NCBI GenBank assembly: GCA_964437365.1
Contig: CAYTGM010000002.1
Location: 130,212-194,211 of the forward strand
Direction of reading: 5' to 3'
Length of the DNA: 64,000 nt
From: an uncultured Candidatus Sumerlaeota bacterium
Lineage (GTDB): Bacteria > Sumerlaeota > Sumerlaeia > SLMS01
Below are positions 21,687 through 32,476 of the stretch, in pieces. A program made the translations under genes and the position numbers. The notes under the pieces were generated by a model. It did not search any database, was not told where the DNA came from, and saw nothing but the letters and a program-made list of their open reading frames with translations. Position 1 is the first letter of the stretch; the number at the start of each line of letters is the position of its first letter.

Positions 21687-24329
21687 ATGCCCGCCCCCGT
21701 AGAAGGTTCCATCGATCACTATTTCTCTCAGGATGCTGCTCGAGTCTGCGCTGAGGAAATCGCCGAAGCGCAAGGGGTCGAAGTCTTCTTTATCTGTCGT
21801 CGGAATGAGGCAGGTCTCATCACTGAAGTTGAGTCTCATGCTTTCGGTACAAAGAATTGTGTTCCCGCCCTGATGCAACTGGCGCAGCCCGGAGAAGTGG
21901 TTGTCCATAATCATCCCTCAGGTCAGCTGATTCCATCAGATGCGGATATTGATATCGCCTCTCACCTTGGCAACATGGGCGTCGGATCGTTTATTATCGA
22001 TAATCAGGCTCATCGTTGTCGCATCATTGTCAAACCTCAAGACCCCAAAAAGAAGAAACGGGTCTCAGAAGAAAGTGTTGTTAAGAGACTATCTCCCAAA
22101 AGCGACCTTTCTAACATTGTCGATGATTTCGAGGACAGACCTCAGCAGCGCTCCATGGCTTCTCAAGTCGTATCCGCCCTCAATGATGACGGAATCAGCG
22201 TTATAGAGGCAGGCACTGGAACAGGAAAATCCTTTGCTTATCTGGTACCTGCAATCATCTTCGCCCTGGAAAATGGCGAGCGCGTCGTGATCAGCACGAA
22301 CACAATCAACCTTCAGGAGCAGCTCCTTCACAAAGATATACCGGCGCTCCGTAAGGCCATTGGCCGAGACTTCAGTGTCGAGATCGTGAAAGGGCGAAGC
22401 AATTATGTCTGCAAGCGGAAGGCTCAGTTTGCCGAGTCTGAAAACTCACTGATCCTCGATGATTTCCAGAAAGAACTCAAGGATGCCTTGGCGTGGGCCG
22501 GCTCTTCATCTACTGGTGATCTCCAGGAGCTCGCAGTCCCACCCCGTCGCGAAGTCTGGGAACGTCTTCAGAGTGAGAGTGATAATACACTGCGTGTTCG
22601 TTGTCCTTTCTATGAAGAATGTTTCTTCTATAATTCACGCCGACGTGCAGCGCGGGCAAACCTTCTCATCGTCAATCATTCACTCCTGCTAAGCGATCTG
22701 GCCATACGCCGCGCAACGGGGAACTATACAACTGCTGCCGTCCTTCCCCCCTATCAGTATGTGGTTATCGACGAGGCGCATAACCTCGAAGAATCCGCCG
22801 CTCGTAATTTAGCCCAGCAGGTCTCACGCTTCGGTGTTCGCCAGCTTTTTGGAAGACTCTACAAGCGTGATAAGAAAGAGGGCAAAGGCGTCTATGCTTC
22901 TCTGACTGTCGCCTGCGAAGAAGCGGTCTCCAAAGGATTCATCAACAGCGGTCATCCGATGATACAAAAACTGGTGCAGGAATTGATCCCTCGCGTTTCC
23001 GATATCCGTGACTCTCTTGACTTTCTTCTTCAGGATTTCATCAACCAGTTTTTGCGCCTTACAGACCATGCTTTTTCAAACGATTCGATGGAGAGCCAGA
23101 AGATTCGTCTGACCTGGAAGCTCAAGCAGCACCCAATCTGGGATGAAGAGTGTGAAGGAATTCTGCAAGGTTTCTCCAGAGAGATCAGTGCCTTTGTTGA
23201 TGAAAACCAGAAAGTCTTTGATCTTTCCCAGGATATCGATGACGAAGCGATGCGCATCCTTACAAATCCTCTGCTGGAGTGGAAATCTCTCATAGGGCGT
23301 CTAGACAGTTTGCGCCAGACAGTGCTTCGCTTCCTTTCCGAGGATAATGAGAACTGCCGTTGGATTGAAATCGTTCCGAAGCTGAAGGAAAAGAGAGAAG
23401 CTGTCGTTAAGCTTTGTCTATCACCAGTCGATGTCCGTGAGATTTTGCGAGAGTCTCTTCACGACAAAATGAAAGCAGAGGTTCTGACCAGCGCAACGCT
23501 TACTGTGGATCAGAAATTTGACTTCTTTAAGGAAAGAACCGGCCTCCCTTCAGTTTCTGTCAGCTCCGAAGCTCCTGTTGAATATGATGAAGAAGGCTTG
23601 CCTGTACATAGGCTGGAGCCTGTGGAAGCTCGCCCTGTATCAATGAATACTCTCGGAGCAGTCTTCGATTATTCTGAGCAGGTTTTCTTCGGCGTTCCAA
23701 AAGACCTTCCAGATCCCCGCGAGAAAGAGTTCGAGCAGGAGCTCGCTGAACTCATCAACCGATCTGTTGTGATTACCGGAGGAAGAGCGTTCGTCCTCTT
23801 TACCAGTTATGGACAATTGAACCGCGTCTATAACCTTTGTGCACCAGTTATTCAGCGTATTGGCGTACGCTGTCTGAAGCAGGGGAGCGAAAACCGCGAC
23901 GCGCTACTCAGAAGGTTTCGTGAAGATGAAACAAGTGTTCTCTTTGCGACGTCAAGTTTCTGGGAAGGTGTTGATGTGAAAGGGCGAGCGTTGGAGTTGC
24001 TGATCATTGCAAAGCTTCCCTTTTCAGTGCCTACAGAACCGGTTCAGGAAGCGCAGTTTGAGGCTCTCAAGGCGAAGGGGAGAGATCCCTTTCAGAACCT
24101 GGTAATTCCCCGAGCTATCATTCGATTCAAGCAGGGGTTTGGTCGCCTTATACGGTCACGTACGGACAGGGGAGCGGTTATTATTGCTGATAATCGTGTT
24201 GTTAAGGCCAATTATGGTCGACGGTTTATTCGATCGTTACCTGATATACAGGTGAGAGCAGCGCAGAGCGAGGAGCTGCTTAAACAAATGGAAGAGTTCT
24301 TTGAAAAGTCACCGACAGGGAAGTATTAA
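21687..24329 (+). CDS. dinG: RadC-like JAB/JAMM domain fused to DinG-family Fe-S DNA helicase
   Basis: 880 aa. Residues ~60-110 (VVVHNHPSGQLIPSDADIDIASHLGNMGVGSFIIDNQAH) match the RadC/JAMM H-x-H-x7-S-x2-D motif. Then Walker A EAGTGTGKSF, a Cys cluster (C-x..RCPFYEEC) and DEAH box VIDEAHNLEE of XPD/DinG helicases. An in-frame stop lies 18 nt upstream of the ATG, so the JAB region is the true N-terminus. Confidence 0.75.
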   Translation: MPAPVEGSIDHYFSQDAARVCAEEIAEAQGVEVFFICRRNEAGLITEVESHAFGTKNCVPALMQLAQPGEVVVHNHPSGQLIPSDADIDIASHLGNMGVGSFIIDNQAHRCRIIVKPQDPKKKKRVSEESVVKRLSPKSDLSNIVDDFEDRPQQRSMASQVVSALNDDGISVIEAGTGTGKSFAYLVPAIIFALENGERVVISTNTINLQEQLLHKDIPALRKAIGRDFSVEIVKGRSNYVCKRKAQFAESENSLILDDFQKELKDALAWAGSSSTGDLQELAVPPRREVWERLQSESDNTLRVRCPFYEECFFYNSRRRAARANLLIVNHSLLLSDLAIRRATGNYTTAAVLPPYQYVVIDEAHNLEESAARNLAQQVSRFGVRQLFGRLYKRDKKEGKGVYASLTVACEEAVSKGFINSGHPMIQKLVQELIPRVSDIRDSLDFLLQDFINQFLRLTDHAFSNDSMESQKIRLTWKLKQHPIWDEECEGILQGFSREISAFVDENQKVFDLSQDIDDEAMRILTNPLLEWKSLIGRLDSLRQTVLRFLSEDNENCRWIEIVPKLKEKREAVVKLCLSPVDVREILRESLHDKMKAEVLTSATLTVDQKFDFFKERTGLPSVSVSSEAPVEYDEEGLPVHRLEPVEARPVSMNTLGAVFDYSEQVFFGVPKDLPDPREKEFEQELAELINRSVVITGGRAFVLFTSYGQLNRVYNLCAPVIQRIGVRCLKQGSENRDALLRRFREDETSVLFATSSFWEGVDVKGRALELLIIAKLPFSVPTEPVQEAQFEALKAKGRDPFQNLVIPRAIIRFKQGFGRLIRSRTDRGAVIIADNRVVKANYGRRFIRSLPDIQVRAAQSEELLKQMEEFFEKSPTGKY

Positions 24330-24800
24330 GAGAACGCTACATATTCTGTTTCCTCTTCAGAGACATAGCCCTCGGAAAAGTCGATACCAGCGTCCTTTAA
24401 TAGTTCTATGAATTCATTGTAAGAATTATGGCGTTTGTGATGTTCCTTTTGATTTCTGATATATTCAACGACAGAGGTTTTGTCTCTGCGCGAGATTGTG
24501 AATGCACCATATTCTTTCTGCCAGCCTGTAAATAAAGGATAATCAGGATGATCCTTTAACCAGCGACTGGGAAGTGACCTTGAGATCTCTGACGAGATCT
24601 GACAATGCTATACGAGGATTTAAGGAGATGAGTAGGTGGACATGATCTTCCATCGTATTTATTCGATACAGATAGCATTTCTTGTTTTTTAGAAAACCCC
24701 ATATGTATCTAAAGAGTGTCTCCTGGATTTCAAGGGGCAGGGTGTTTTCACGATTCTTGGTTGAGAAAACGATATGGTAATAGATCTGTCTATAAGACAT
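24326..24800 (-). pseudogene. tnpA: IS200/IS605-family Y1 (HUH) transposase / RAYT-like gene, interrupted by a +1/-1 frameshift
   Basis: N-terminal part (from MSYRQIYYHIVFSTKNR through the HUH motif DHVHLLI) is in one frame and ends at 24543. The C-terminal part (WLKDHPDYPLFTGWQKEYGAF...VEYIRNQKEHH, with the catalytic Tyr) continues in the adjacent frame to a stop at 24326-24328. The two halves overlap near 24545-24560. The stop overlaps the dinG stop. Confidence 0.6.
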
Positions 24801-24921
24801 CGTGGTTGTTCTCTCGATTGGGTATGATCTGTTTGTCCGCAGGATGCGTGAGCGTGATTCGGGCGCAATATAATTGAAATCTGTTGGCCTTCGTCGAAGG
24901 CCTTTGTGTTGTGGCATTTGT

Positions 24922-24953
24922 CCCCAAGGCCCCAAGGCCCCAAAGCCCCAAGG
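24922..24953. repeat. Octamer microsatellite (CCCCAAGG)x4
   Basis: ccccaagg ccccaagg ccccaaag ccccaagg read directly, immediately adjacent to the left inverted repeat. Confidence 0.9.
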
Positions 24954-24980
24954 CTCGCTTCGCTCACCATGGGGCTATTC
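24954..24980. repeat. Left 27-bp inverted repeat (pairs with 25583..25609)
   Basis: ctcgcttcgctcaccatggggctattc. Its reverse complement matches gaatagccccgtggtgagcgcagcgaac at 25583-25609 (about 24 of 27 positions). Confidence 0.8.
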
Positions 24981-25039
24981 AAATTTACCCACCTTCGGCG
25001 GGATATATTGAATGAACCTACCCCGGACGATGTCCGGGG

Positions 25040-25487
25040 CTAAGATTTTTCCATCCCTGGCGGGATGTTCGGTTAGGTTTTCTGATGATTCTCTTCGATC
25101 GTTGAACGTTGTCGTTGTCAGCGCAGCGGTTGACGTTGTCGGCCGTTGCTCACGCCTCATACTAAGATTTTTCCATCCCTGCCGGGATGTTTGCTTAGGT
25201 ATTCTGATGATTCTCTTCGATCGTTGAACGTTGTCAGCGCAGCGGTTGACGTTGTCTGCAGTTGCTCACGTCTCATACTAAGATTTTACCACCCCTGCTG
25301 GGATGTTTGCTTAGGTATTCTGATGATTCTCTTCGATCGTTGAACGTTGTCGTTGTCAGCGCAGCGGTTGTCGTTGTGGGCCGTTGCTCACGCCTCATAC
25401 TAAGATTTTTCCATCCCTGCTGGGATGTTCGGTTAGGTATTCTGATGATTCTCTTTGATCGTTGAACGTTGTCGGCGGTTGTCAGCC
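25040..25487. repeat. Tandem array of four 116-122-bp direct repeats
   Basis: Units start with ctaagatttt at 25040, 25162, 25278 and 25400. They are more than 90% identical and differ by a 6-bp indel (gtcgtt). Each contains a conserved 6-bp-stem hairpin catccc-NNNN-gggatg. They are bounded by hairpins ccccggacgatgtccgggg (25021-25039) and cctcccgtagggagg (25561-25575). Confidence 0.9.
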
Positions 25488-25582
25488 AGTCGCCCTTGCT
25501 GTCTTTAAGACCTCCAGGATCCTCCTTTCTATTATCACTTCAAATCTCCACTCTCCAAATCCTCCCGTAGGGAGGTAAATGT

Positions 25583-25609
25583 GAATAGCCCCGTGGTGAG
25601 CGCAGCGAA
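25583..25609. repeat. Right 27-bp inverted repeat
   Basis: Partner of 24954..24980. See evidence there. Confidence 0.8.
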
Positions 25610-25652
25610 CCTCGGGGACAGATGACCAATCATTATCCGCCTCCGGCGGAGG

Positions 25653-25693
25653 CGAACAAAAAAACTCCCCCTGCATTACGCAGGGGGAGTTTA
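25653..25693 (-). terminator. Rho-independent terminator of groES-groEL
   Basis: On the - strand: AAACTCCCCCTGC-GTAAT-GCAGGGGGAGTTT followed by TTTTTTTGTT. Lies 33 bp after the groEL stop. Confidence 0.8.
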
Positions 25694-29005: not shown

Positions 29006-32000
29006 TTAGAACTCTGTGACGTTCACACCTTTAAGAATTACCCCGATATGAGGGTTGTCTTGATCGAGTGAATCTTTTTCTACATAGAGATAATCGAAGG
29101 ATAGGTTTAGCGTGCTTCCTGACAAATCTTCAGGGCAGTTGAACCAGAGCTCATAGGTCAGATCTTCACCCAACACTGGAACTTGAGATTCCTGGTTTAC
29201 AGAATCAATATTGATCACATGGCCGATCTGACTTGTCGAATCATTAGCCCTGAGTCTGAAGGTTGGAACATTCATCCGCTCTTCCTCGGTGGCTGTGCTG
29301 CCTATGGTAAACTCGATCTTGTAGAGTTTACCGTCTATCAGCTCGATTCCAGTCTGCTTTGTCCAATAGCCGAAATAGAGAGGCTCTTCATAGGCTCGTT
29401 CACTCGAGGACGAACTTACCCCTTGAAGGAGAAGTCCGTTATCAGATGAGACGATTTGAGGAGCTGGGAGGTTGCCCGATTCGTCGTACCCATATGACCA
29501 TCCAAGGTTCTCACCATTGGATAAGTTCAGATCGTGATCCAATAAGCTATTACCGTCACTCAGGCGATTCAGCATTAAGTAATCTGTATAGAGATGATCG
29601 AGTGAGATTCTGCTCTCTGCAGCGTCCATCGGATCAACATTGAGAACTTCGAAGCTGAAGAAGTGCTCTAAAGGATTTTCAGCTAAAGGTATATATTGAG
29701 TATAAGCAGTCGGGTTCTGTGCTGGTGAGTTACGTCCGTTTCCAGAGGAAGAGATCACCATGAGATCACTTCTGGAAAAGTCGCTCTTCGATGAACGAAG
29801 GCGAACGGTTGGAACCTCACTTCGGTCCTCGACGGAGGATGATAGGCGCCAGTTTGCCGTCAACAAGACAGGATCTTCCGGAGATTCAATGTCTGCTAAA
29901 GGCGAGTCCCACATTCCAAATGTCAGGTTGTTGTCCTCTGTGTCTATCAGGAGAGACTCAAGTTCTGATGAATGAGAAAACTGGGGCGAAGTAAAGGGGT
30001 CAGGAGATAAGGACTCCCATCCATTCGTTTCGACAAAAGAGTTTGAATTATCTGTCTGTGCATACCAGGCGATCTTCTTATCTAAACGCGATGCAACAAT
30101 GATGTCTTCATCTCCATCAAGATTAAGGTCGCCTGAAAGTACAAAAGCTGGTGCATTAATACCTTCAAGATCAAGACCGATTTCCTCGAACCGAGGAACT
30201 ACCGTTTCAAGATTGTTCATTAAATAAATGATTGAATCACCTGGTGATTTTCGCTGTGGATACATAGTTAATAAGGCATCAGGATAGTTGTCATTATTTA
30301 AATCGGTAAGATGAAATCCAAAGACGTTGTTTAAATCAGATTTAATTACTCGTTCTTCTGAAAACATCACCTCTTGTTCCGTCGTTTGGTTTTCGAACCA
30401 AACGAGGCGATCAGGAGCTTCAAGAAGAATGACGATGTCCTTGTCACCGTCATTGTCCATATCTGAGAGTCTCAAATCAGAATCACCACGCATTGAAGCT
30501 TCGGCGATGATGTATTCACTAAAGCCTTCGACCTCATTGTCCAGGTTGTTCTCGAGCCAGAGTACTTCACCAAGTTCTTCATTGGCAGCCACGAAATCAG
30601 TATCCCCATCACCATCAAGATCGATTGACTCTATTGTGTGAACAGCTCCATTTGAAATCTCAATATCACTTTCCAGGAAGCTTTCTTCAGTAATTCCTAT
30701 ATTGTTCGTGTAGTAGAGTGTTTGTCTGGCACTTGGGTATGCGACAACAAGATCAGTTCTTCCATCCTGATTTAAATCTGCAGTTGTAATATCTTCTCCT
30801 GTCGATTCCGTAAACGTGATTCGTGTTTTTGTCGGAAAATGAGGCCCATCATTTGAAGATTGATTTTTTAACCAACTTAGTTCTCTAGAATCAGTTAGTG
30901 TTATAAGGTCCTGATTACCATCTCCGTCCAAATCGGAAAGAAAGAAGATGTTAAATCGAACGCCATATGGGTCCGTATATAACTCTTTTAATTTACTGAA
31001 CGAACTACCCTTGTCAGATATTTTGTTCTCAAACCAACCTATGCTATTCGCCCCAAATACGGAGATTAGATCTTCATCTCCATCTCCATCCAAATCCGCT
31101 AAGCTCCCCCTCACTTTGTAATTGAGGTTGGTATCAGGAATACTAATTAGATTGCCCATGCATATCAGAAATGTCTCTTCTGGAGCGACAGGCGATTTAT
31201 ACCATTTCAAGCTATCGGACAATAAATCATCCTTTCCATCACTATCTACATCAAGAGTTGCAAAAGTAGGGTTTAGCCTCTCTACATTGCATGGTAGCGA
31301 GAACTGCTGAAATTCAAGGCCTTCTCCAAAATCGGGTGTGGAAAGCGATATACTCGTCATTGATGTACCAACAGAGAAAATCAATTCCTTATTCATGTCA
31401 CCATCAATATCTACAAGGGCTTTTGAATCCAGAGTTTCTCCAGGTAGGCTCCTTACAAGATGAATTGGTTCAAAGTCTACGCTGTTAGCAATACCGTTAT
31501 TTCTTAGCAGATATACATCAGTACCAGGAATCCCACCGTAAACATCAAAGTTCACCAGAATGACATCATCATCACTATCATGGTCGATATCATCTATAAT
31601 AAATTTGGAACCATACCCAGATGTAAAGAAATTACCGGTAATATAAGACGAGCTCCAATCCCCAGACGCCTGCTCAGCAGCGGGATTAATTAGTGCATAG
31701 ACATTGATTCGCTCATCACCTTTAGCTGTATAAATGACATCCAGAAAACCGTCATTATTTAAATCTATGGAATCAGCTGCGAAAGGGACCACATCTTTCT
31801 TAATAACCGTCTTTTCGAAAAGGAGAGTCCCGGATTCTTTTTCGAATTTGAAATCTACCAAAAGGATCTCATCGGAAACATATGAATAAGCCAATAATTC
31901 GGCTTTTCCGTCCCCATACATATCCGAAAAACCATATATGCCCACTCCCTCATCTTCCAGTGGTCGGGGAGTAGAGAAACTAACATGCTTTTCTAGCATC

Positions 32001-32476
32001 TGATTCTCTATCCAAAAAAGACCTTCTATCCCGGTTCCGAGGATATCAAGATCATCATCCCCATCCAAGTCATAGGGAAAGGCCTTCCCATACGAATTAC
32101 CGCGCGAAAGATACTCCGGGCTTGTAAAAACTCCATCTGATTGAATCCGGTTTTCCATCCAGAGGAGATCACCACTACCAGGCAAACCAGGAGGGTTACG
32201 ATCAAGTCTGCTCGTTGCAAGAATATCTAAATCGCCATCCAAGTCGAAATCTGCTGCTTCTATTGTTTCAAAATTCAGATGAAACTCATCTGAGATAACA
32301 TCTCCGAAGCCGAATTGAATCGGCGGTTGAGCCATCAGGTTTCCCGGTAATGCTAAGAGCACGCTCCCGACGGAACTAATTGCAAGAGATTTAATTGTTT
32401 TGGATAGAAATGTAGATGCATATGCATCATGTTTGATAATTCGCATGAGGCTCCCCCCTCGTATAATTTGATCCAA
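29006..32476 (-). CDS. Giant secreted FG-GAP/VCBS-type repeat protein
   Basis: 1156 aa. Signal peptide. More than 10 Ca-binding-like D-x-D-x-DG-x-x-D loops (DLDGDGDEDLI, DVDSDGKDDLL, DIDHDSDDDVIL ...) typical of integrin-alpha/FG-GAP beta-propeller blades. Confidence 0.6.
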   Translation of the reverse strand: MDQIIRGGSLMRIIKHDAYASTFLSKTIKSLAISSVGSVLLALPGNLMAQPPIQFGFGDVISDEFHLNFETIEAADFDLDGDLDILATSRLDRNPPGLPGSGDLLWMENRIQSDGVFTSPEYLSRGNSYGKAFPYDLDGDDDLDILGTGIEGLFWIENQMLEKHVSFSTPRPLEDEGVGIYGFSDMYGDGKAELLAYSYVSDEILLVDFKFEKESGTLLFEKTVIKKDVVPFAADSIDLNNDGFLDVIYTAKGDERINVYALINPAAEQASGDWSSSYITGNFFTSGYGSKFIIDDIDHDSDDDVILVNFDVYGGIPGTDVYLLRNNGIANSVDFEPIHLVRSLPGETLDSKALVDIDGDMNKELIFSVGTSMTSISLSTPDFGEGLEFQQFSLPCNVERLNPTFATLDVDSDGKDDLLSDSLKWYKSPVAPEETFLICMGNLISIPDTNLNYKVRGSLADLDGDGDEDLISVFGANSIGWFENKISDKGSSFSKLKELYTDPYGVRFNIFFLSDLDGDGNQDLITLTDSRELSWLKNQSSNDGPHFPTKTRITFTESTGEDITTADLNQDGRTDLVVAYPSARQTLYYTNNIGITEESFLESDIEISNGAVHTIESIDLDGDGDTDFVAANEELGEVLWLENNLDNEVEGFSEYIIAEASMRGDSDLRLSDMDNDGDKDIVILLEAPDRLVWFENQTTEQEVMFSEERVIKSDLNNVFGFHLTDLNNDNYPDALLTMYPQRKSPGDSIIYLMNNLETVVPRFEEIGLDLEGINAPAFVLSGDLNLDGDEDIIVASRLDKKIAWYAQTDNSNSFVETNGWESLSPDPFTSPQFSHSSELESLLIDTEDNNLTFGMWDSPLADIESPEDPVLLTANWRLSSSVEDRSEVPTVRLRSSKSDFSRSDLMVISSSGNGRNSPAQNPTAYTQYIPLAENPLEHFFSFEVLNVDPMDAAESRISLDHLYTDYLMLNRLSDGNSLLDHDLNLSNGENLGWSYGYDESGNLPAPQIVSSDNGLLLQGVSSSSSERAYEEPLYFGYWTKQTGIELIDGKLYKIEFTIGSTATEEERMNVPTFRLRANDSTSQIGHVINIDSVNQESQVPVLGEDLTYELWFNCPEDLSGSTLNLSFDYLYVEKDSLDQDNPHIGVILKGVNVTEF

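Follow-up and report, generated by a model that had tools for sequence, protein, structure and literature searches.

The 64-kb window analysed here, the whole stretch of DNA under study, is derived from an uncultured Candidatus Sumerlaeota (BRC1) bacterium (contig CAYTGM010000002.1 of GCA_964437365.1, positions 130,212 to 194,211). It contains a non-coding repeat segment that sits between a Y1 transposase gene (24800 to 24326, minus strand) and the intrinsic terminator of groEL (25662-25692), a position already given in a first-pass annotation of the bare sequence and borne out by the open reading frame (ORF) and terminator coordinates. The terminator has a 14-bp stem followed by a T-run on the minus strand; it forms the right-hand boundary and lies outside the element. 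The wider neighbours are groEL itself (27357-25726, minus strand) and a RadC/JAB-DinG-type helicase gene (21687-24329, plus strand). The best non-self matches of the window GroEL are 87-88% identical and carry the names Sumerlaeota or Sumerlaeia. In L003 (GCA_964420455.1), a relative, groEL converges with the orthologous helicase gene, which is only 130 bp away, and the two helicases are 52% identical over their full length. Because L003 has just these 130 bp between the two genes, the transposase gene and the repeat region, together about 1.4 kb, are an insertion relative to L003.

The transposase gene is split by a +1 frameshift in a C-run (a G-run at 24569-24571 on the plus strand), as seen in the three-frame translation, and this is either real decay or a homopolymer error of the assembly. 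In comparison to the 148-aa homologues the reading frame runs 11 codons beyond the usual end of the family. Its own stop codon is missing, and the one that is used overlaps the stop codon of the convergent helicase gene by 4 nt. Frameshift and read-through suggest that the gene is decaying and that its 3' flank was lost. The repaired protein reaches 98.4 bits with Pfam Y1_Tnp and passes the NCBIfam IS200/IS605 model NF033573 (77.4 bits, cut-off 55), whereas it stays below the cut-off of the model for transposases associated with repetitive extragenic palindromes (REPs), NF047646 REP_Tyr_transpos (31.7 bits, cut-off 80). It aligns end to end with the 148-aa homologues, save for the 11 extra C-terminal residues. 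These closest relatives are only 50-59% identical and are found in Limisphaerales, Lentisphaerae, Planctomycetes, Verrucomicrobiales, Hydrogenedentes, Chitinophagaceae, Litoribacter and Chryseobacterium. Aligned with 25 of them, the window protein shows the motifs EDHVH, GWQ and YIRNQKEHH, where the consensus reads EDHxH, GWQ and YI(K/R)NQxEHH. The GC content of the gene is 39%, compared to 47.6% for the window.

Subclass 1.2 of the TnpA_Y1 transposases is characterized by a length of about 148 aa, the HuH motif DH[IV]H, a WQ motif, the Y motif Y---Q--HH (YIKNQKEHH) and a specific C-terminal domain; it is a low-copy group, sister to subclass 1.1, and has been recorded as lacking REPs and, in general, terminal secondary structures of the IS200 type (Quentin et al., 2018, PMC6006769). 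Judged by its motifs, the window protein is a member of this subclass, and the earlier description of the gene as RAYT-like (REP-associated tyrosine transposase) has to be dropped in view of the profile scores.

On the upstream side of the transposase gene, a pair of inverted repeats bounds the segment. The 27-nt arms first noticed at 24954-24980 and 25583-25609 are real, but they are the core of a longer inverted repeat of 59 nt found by the repeat finder (24946-25004 and 25559-25617, 83% complementary). A 29-mer core, searched with up to 3 mismatches, occurs at only these two sites in the 64 kb, where shuffled sequences give an expectation of 0.00. Each arm is made of two stem-loops, HP1 and HP2, separated by a linker. 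The left arm (M1) reads on the plus strand HP1 CCCCAAGG-[CTCGCTTCGCTCA]-CCATGGGG, linker CTATTCAAATTTA and HP2 CCCACC-TTC-GGCGGG. The right arm (M2) has the inverted orientation and reads on the minus strand HP1 CCCCGAGG-[TTCGCTGCGCTCA]-CCACGGGG, linker CTATTCACATTTA and HP2 CCTCCC-TAC-GGGAGG. Among the differences of M2 from M1 are compensatory substitutions in either stem, with an A-T pair replaced by G-C in HP1 and a C-G pair by T-A in HP2.

Outside each arm lies an extra hairpin (HP0). On the left it is found about 43 nt out at 24886-24902 (plus strand, GGCCTTCG-T-CGAAGGCC), where it is listed as terminator-like and predicted in the folds of both strands. On the right it lies about 20 nt out at 25638-25654 (minus strand, CGCCTCC-GGC-GGAGGCG), read from the sequence and the folds and from weak HP2-type matches to the covariance model R1 described below. 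The symmetric structure as a whole spans about 24886-25654, and RNA folds of the arm regions recover all arm and outer hairpins with z-scores of -1.65 to -3.1. No direct repeat that could be a target-site duplication flanks 24946/25617 or 24886/25654 on reading the sequence. Between the left HP0 and M1, the octamer CCCCAAGG, which forms the 5' arm of M1's HP1, has three additional copies in tandem on the plus strand at 24922-24945 (Tandem Repeats Finder, TRF, reports 24922-24954 with period 8 and 4.1 copies). Including the HP1 arm of M1 itself, the octamer stands in four tandem copies at 24922-24953, and the minus strand reads (GGGGNNNN)n. On that strand the GGGG tracts 4 nt apart form a canonical G-quadruplex-type motif beside the hairpins.

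Two hairpins had been described as capping the array that fills the segment, and both exist: the one at 25021-25039 has a perfect 8-bp stem, and the one at 25561-25575, with a perfect 6-bp stem, is the second stem-loop of the right arm. The former may be part of a third, degenerate copy (M3, 25021-25067, plus strand), made of HP1 CCCCGGAC-GAT-GTCCGGGG (25021-25039), a linker-like CTAAGATTTTTC and, 12 nt away from HP1, the HP2-like CATCCC-TGGC-GGGATG (25052-25067). R1 matches 25021-25042 (HP1 and CTA) with 11.1 bits, at an E-value of 0.21 for the 64 kb and of 0.0028 when the 851-nt locus alone is searched, and the rest is read from the sequence, so that M3 as a module is suggestive only.

Hairpin pairs resembling the window arms were first seen beside the gene in two homologue loci. 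In L008, for example, the hairpins read CCTTAG-[GTTTCGCTTCGCTCAACG]-CTAAGG, CTACTCAAATA and CTTCTTG-TTC-CAAGAAG, and an equivalent of HP0 lies about 20 nt outside HP1 in L008, L075 and L025. A metagenome scan with the protein alignment gave 80 further homologue loci. In a pattern search the same architecture recurred in many of them: an 8-bp GC-rich HP1 (CC....GG, loop usually TTC), the linker CTAYTCAYRTT, and an HP2 with a stem of 5-9 bp and a TTC(G) loop. A covariance model (R1) was built from 28 modules that flank homologous genes in other organisms, including no window sequence, and the 64 kb were searched with it on both strands with filters off. The only significant matches are the two inverted-repeat arms, M2 with 30.3 bits (E 1.6e-6) as the top match and M1 with 25.1 bits (E 3.8e-5). 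The proposed link between the inverted repeats and the adjacent Y1 gene is thereby supported, as a model made from flanks of homologous genes alone finds exactly both arms in the window.

In the 82 homologue loci R1 gives 233 matches at E<0.01, and in 4 groEL control loci it gives none. The position relative to the gene was analysed among the 150 best R1 matches. By this measure a module is present at 63 of 80 homologue loci. An upstream module on the minus strand is found in 43 of 74 loci with a median gap of 68 bp, and a downstream module on the plus strand in 42 of 72 loci with a median gap of 58 bp. Modules number 1.14 per kb up to 1 kb from the gene and 0.021 per kb beyond, a difference of about 50-fold, and the 144 kb of flanks include three modules at more than 1 kb from a gene. 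Tail-to-tail doublets, in which a plus-strand module is followed by a minus-strand module after a spacer of 14-212 bp, are frequent beside the homologous genes. The arms of the window are thus members of a conserved module family that is associated with these genes in a defined position and orientation. M1 lies 146 bp from the Y1 start codon, where the family range is 36-241 bp, and has the strand and side expected of an upstream module that belongs to the gene; M2 is the inverted counterpart of M1. The M1-M2 spacer in the window measures 554 bp and is filled by the tandem array. Modules are present on the upstream side of the Y1 gene only, which at its 3' end directly adjoins the helicase gene.

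Since the seed modules of R1 had been picked by requiring hairpins, CTAYTCA was tested separately without any hairpin requirement. Near the genes it occurs 87 times in 82 kb, and 45 of these 87 sites have an abutting perfect 7-bp hairpin. The same combination is seen at 1 of 19 sites far from genes and at 0 of 11 sites in 142 kb of controls. In two alignments 14 of the 15 base pairs of the module stems show compensatory changes, although the second alignment was fitted to the model and hence leans towards the structure. The module arrangement is shared by L091 and by the isolate genome of Litoribacter ruber (L090), and no module is found elsewhere in the 20-kb regions around these two genes. 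Read on the complementary strand, the module shows GA(G/A)TAG and then the 8-bp HP1 hairpin, where CTACTC variants have GTAG and CTATTC variants ATAG; the complement of both window arms has ATAG at the foot of the hairpin. Mismatches in HP1 are A.C in 28 cases and G.T in 14, a weak hint that folding takes place on the [G/A]TAG strand. The recorded lack of REPs and IS200-type ends in subclass 1.2 does not hold in the loci examined, given a module at 63 of 80 genes and in L. ruber and two copies in the window. In a full-text literature search only Quentin et al. (2018, PMC6006769) describe subclass 1.2, without associated repeats. The HP1-CTAYTCA-HP2 module and the recurrent arrays next to it appear to be unreported within the literature searched.

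The array (25040-25487, TRF score 716-778) consists of units of 122, 116, 122 and about 80 bp that begin with CTAAGATTTTTC and a 6-bp hairpin. TRF reports 25040-25474 with period 122, 3.6 copies and 89% matches, and a higher-order period of 238 bp at 93%. The units lie at 25040-25161, 25162-25277 and 25278-25399, and the fourth is truncated (25400 to about 25477-25487). The array of four units with periods of 122, 116 and 122 bp thus stands as first described, whereas to call its units near-identical was generous, as they share 82-93% pairwise identity. The 6 nt by which the unit lengths differ are one GTTGTC hexamer. The hairpin CATCCC-N4-GGGATG that was said to be conserved in each unit is found at 25052-25067, 25174-25189, 25290-25305 and 25412-25427. 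Units 1, 2 and 4 carry a perfect copy, and in unit 3 (CACCCC...GGGATG) the hairpin has one C.A mismatch on the plus strand, which would be a G.T wobble on the minus strand. The best-conserved part of the unit is not this hairpin but the 33-mer TCTGATGATTCTCTTCGATCGTTGAACGTTGTC, which occurs 4 times in the array and nowhere else in the 64 kb. The 3' half of each unit (25075-25160 and equivalents) is dense in GTTG(A/T)C-type hexamers, with 5-6 per unit. The left edge of the array falls exactly at the 3' foot of HP1 of M3.

The judgement that the array is non-coding and its ORFs are repeat artefacts is upheld: the three ORFs of 65-71 aa have no Pfam match above threshold and fall in three different frames, because 122 and 116 both leave a remainder of 2 on division by 3. 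Small ORFs of 63-71 aa are called inside arrays both in the window (25012-25465) and in Litoribacter ruber (L090, 10770-10961), and are probably artefacts of the repeats. We also agree that the array is not CRISPR-like, as the whole 116-122-bp unit repeats without unique spacers and the only match to a CRISPR direct-repeat model in the locus has 21 bits at a gathering score of 42.

Arrays recur in the flanks of the homologous genes. About 15 of the 82 loci have an array with a period of 52-211 bp no farther than 1 kb from the gene, compared to two arrays in the 144 kb farther away. L025 has the layout of the window, namely a plus-strand module, a 133-bp array and a minus-strand module, and its array units keep only the 3' half of HP1 with linker and HP2, the 5' arm of HP1 being absent. 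Units without a complete HP1 are likewise seen in L077, L043 and L084. L075 carries eight 105-bp units with three hairpins each, and in L. ruber (L090) three modules follow each other at a period of 132 bp. A single preferred breakpoint, which would be a sign of cleavage by the transposase, was considered and rejected, since the breakpoints in L016, L025, L043, L077, L084 and the window all differ.

Two of these loci show further peculiarities. In L089 (2443-3052) a 211-bp tandem repeat with 2.9 copies and 93% identity holds the upstream hairpin together with the first codons of the transposase (ATGGCCAAC...TATCACATCGTGTTC) and thereby creates repeated gene starts. L016 (2383-2640) has three module copies, and in two of them a perfect 40-nt palindrome (TTCAGGCTAAAGTTTCGC-TT-TGCGAAACTTTAGCCTGAA) is inserted exactly between the linker CTATTCACATT and HP2, while the third copy is without it; this site could mark a preferred cut or insertion point.

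Taken together, we consider it probable that the segment is the non-coding flank of a subclass 1.2 Y1 gene in a system resembling a REPtron (a tnpA_REP/RAYT gene with inverted REPs), with the arms as its modules and the array as a local duplication of the spacer. The module comprises the 8-bp GC-rich HP1, CTAYTCA(YRTT) as a near-invariant linker, HP2 and in most cases an additional hairpin some 20 nt farther out than HP1, and the two arms are two tail-to-tail copies of the cognate module of the gene family. By analogy with the ends of IS200/IS605 elements and with REPs, the modules may act as single-stranded DNA (ssDNA) hairpins that are recognised and possibly cut by the transposase, and CTAYTC/[G/A]TAG may form part of the recognition or cleavage site, as judged from IS200/IS605 TnpA and TnpA_REP. 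The array would have arisen as a lineage-specific tandem duplication of the spacer between M1 and M2, anchored at HP1 of M3. Slippage or template switching promoted by hairpins during replication is its most likely cause, and cleavage and rejoining through the transposase a less likely one. Because arrays recur in these hairpin-rich flanks and the units do not match the module, we take the array as a local duplication in a duplication-prone region and infer that it has no function of its own. The frameshift, the lost stop codon and the lost downstream module make the whole locus look like a decaying relic. Nothing supports present-day activity in the window, since the gene is frameshifted and truncated.

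Several observations weigh against this interpretation. The units do not match R1 (1.6 bits at most), and in Smith-Waterman alignments with the arms against 300 shuffles they do not rise above the shuffled level (p 0.37-0.87). One exception is a 16-nt stretch of the unit that resembles the HP1 loop on the opposite strand, with p about 0.003 before correction for four tests. As the similarity does not exceed that of shuffles apart from this stretch, a derivation of the units from a module, with each unit as a degenerate copy, is no more than a possibility. M3, which would anchor the array, reaches just 11 bits, and a conserved 33-nt stretch outside the hairpin is not predicted by a purely neutral duplication. 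Moreover, the array breakpoints in the family are scattered over the stretch between the HP1 loop and the linker's end and do not indicate a single mechanism. We also considered a farther-reaching version, in which the subclass 1.2 genes constitute a distinct, widespread and locus-restricted REPtron-like system with the module as cognate ssDNA substrate, and in which the arrays are made by cleavage and rejoining by the enzyme near the foot of HP1 and not by passive slippage. This version we regard as tentative and rather doubtful.

A different explanation would be that the segment of about 670 bp bounded by the inverted repeats is a non-autonomous mobile element, similar to REP doublets (REPINs), palindrome-associated transposable elements (PATEs) or miniature inverted-repeat transposable elements (MITEs), that carries the array as cargo and is moved in trans by a subclass 1.2 transposase. 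Two inverted cognate modules do bound the segment, tail-to-tail doublets with 14-212-bp spacers are common next to the homologous genes, gene and flank are absent from the syntenic site in the relative, and the three modules found more than 1 kb from a gene would fit such movement. However, no further copy of an arm, a unit or a module is found in the 64 kb. A scan of 185,579 species genomes with the inverted-repeat core gave one match, in an actinobacterial metagenome-assembled genome, which on reading is a chance match inside unrelated DNA. No match was obtained in a metagenome scan with a 28-mer of the unit or in a blastn search of the locus against plasmids and phages, and blastn of the array against 90 fetched loci gave chance-level matches only. 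The modules of homologous loci are concentrated about 50-fold within 1 kb of the gene and are absent from the rest of the 20 kb around the genes of L090 and L091. In addition, the left arm sits at the place expected for the gene's own upstream module, and the local transposase gene is frameshifted. We therefore regard a mobile element as unlikely.

The array could also encode tandem small RNAs or a cis-acting structured RNA, for instance one that regulates the transposase or groEL. Each unit contains the conserved hairpin nested in a CTAAG/CTTAG outer stem, one unit hairpin with a T-rich tail is listed as terminator-like, and the broken pair of unit 3 would be a G.U wobble on the minus strand. 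Against this, Rfam gives nothing relevant in the whole window at the gathering threshold or in the locus at E up to 10, and a tRNA/tmRNA scan found none. The array contains one promoter-like site where shuffles lead to an expectation of 1.9, and three of the four units lack a terminator-like site. The folds of the units are not exceptional (z-scores -0.1 to -1.7). Only the small hairpin and the outer stem fold consistently, the predicted structures differ between units otherwise, and units 2 and 3 disrupt, with no compensating change, a 12-bp stem that is predicted for unit 1. No homologue was found in the metagenomes, plasmids, phages and loci searched. The array of structured small RNAs that the first-pass annotation had offered is thus not supported, and among the readings considered here we rate an RNA array lowest. 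Quite improbable, too, is that the units are iteron-like binding sites for the HUH protein or a host factor, by which gene expression or module processing would be controlled through the GTTGWC hexamers (5-6 per unit) or the invariant 33-mer. In plasmids and viruses, HUH Rep proteins rely on iterons that adjoin the hairpin of the nick site, the hexamers are dense in the 3' halves of the units and account for the difference between 122 and 116 bp, and the 33-mer is the best-conserved part of the unit. No use of iterons is known for Y1 transposases, however. The arrays elsewhere have unrelated unit sequences, one of them duplicates part of a coding region, and there is no conservation beyond this window.

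Among known systems, the IS200/IS605 elements (IS608, ISDra2), whose TnpA acts with subterminal hairpins at the left and right ends, are closest with respect to the protein, for which the NCBIfam model is above its cut-off. At the right end of IS608 a hairpin is followed by a conserved short motif within 8-10 nt, as in the module. However, the ends of these elements lie on the same strand and are no inverted repeats, whereas here the modules lie on opposite strands around the gene, and for this reason the locus is not an IS200/IS605 element. The REPtrons, with REPs in clusters including bacterial interspersed mosaic elements (BIMEs), as known for E. coli yafM (Ton-Hoang et al., 2012, PMC3333891; Quentin et al., 2018, PMC6006769), resemble the present family in a single-copy Y1/HUH gene flanked by inverted hairpin repeats, which in the window are confined to the upstream side, and in inverted doublets and tandem clusters that adjoin the gene. 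The foot of the REP hairpin has the tetranucleotide GT[AG]G, and that of the module, on the complementary strand, a REP-like [G/A]TAG. In difference to them the protein belongs to class 1 (subclass 1.2) and not to class 2, with the RAYT model below cut-off. The module has two or three parts (HP1-CTAYTCA-HP2, plus HP0) where a REP is one palindrome, its copies keep to about 1 kb around the gene where REPs are scattered by the hundreds, and the arrays are direct repeats and do not alternate in orientation.

REPINs (Bertels and Rainey, 2011, PMC3116915) also join two inverted hairpin units into one doublet, and tail-to-tail doublets are frequent in the family studied here; in the window, however, the spacer is 554 bp long and holds the array, multiple copies are not seen in the 64 kb and the transposase is of another class. 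The TIRYTs share a Y1 gene bracketed by inverted repeats that are not classical REPs, but they belong mainly to subclass 2.1 with helix-turn-helix domains and have the repeat consensus GGGG[AT][CG]A[CG], whereas structured hairpin modules with CTAYTCA are found here. In BIMEs the REPs alternate regularly in orientation. The units of the window are direct repeats that do not match the module, and the array is for this reason not a BIME in the strict meaning of the term, the type that had been suggested. Of the features of a MITE or REPIN the inverted repeats are present, and multiple copies and a target-site duplication were not seen. A dispersed MITE or REP family, or mobilisation at present, likewise finds no support, given the single copy in 64 kb, the empty collection scans and the confinement of homologous modules to about 1 kb. 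From the proposal of a REP-type element tied to the adjacent Y1 transposase, the REP-like arms and their tie to the gene thus remain, whereas dispersal, BIME structure and mobilisation fall away.

Some features of the neighbourhood deserve mention. The helicase gene (21687-24329, plus strand) encodes an 880-aa protein in which an N-terminal JAB/MPN domain (RadC-like, HNHPSG) is fused to a DinG/XPD-type helicase, and the same fusion, 52% identical, is convergent to groEL in the related Sumerlaeota genome L003 as well. About 3 kb off, a 1156-aa protein with many FG-GAP/VCBS-like DxDGDxD repeats is encoded at 29006-32476 on the minus strand, with no apparent tie to the repeat locus. In another Sumerlaeia genome (L002, 4225-4260) a short GGGAT(G) microsatellite (gggatgggatgggatgggatggcatggg) lies downstream of groEL; it is unrelated to the module.

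For the window, the repeat is no longer a candidate for a new RNA gene or mobile element, as it would be a decaying transposase-like flank between groEL and a helicase gene, in which the array itself is an ordinary by-product of the module system. For the family, the analysis provides a concrete predicted DNA substrate for a subclass of HUH/Y1 proteins, namely HP1 and HP2 with the invariant CTAYTC between them, present as inverted copies some 60 bp away from either end of the gene. Subclass 1.2 occurs in Bacteroidota, the PVC group, Hydrogenedentes, Sumerlaeota and others. The association of a gene with hairpins known from REP/RAYT systems would thereby be extended to a sister group of the IS200/IS605 transposases, and the flanks of subclass 1.2 genes would be hot spots of tandem duplication, where gene callers predict spurious small ORFs.

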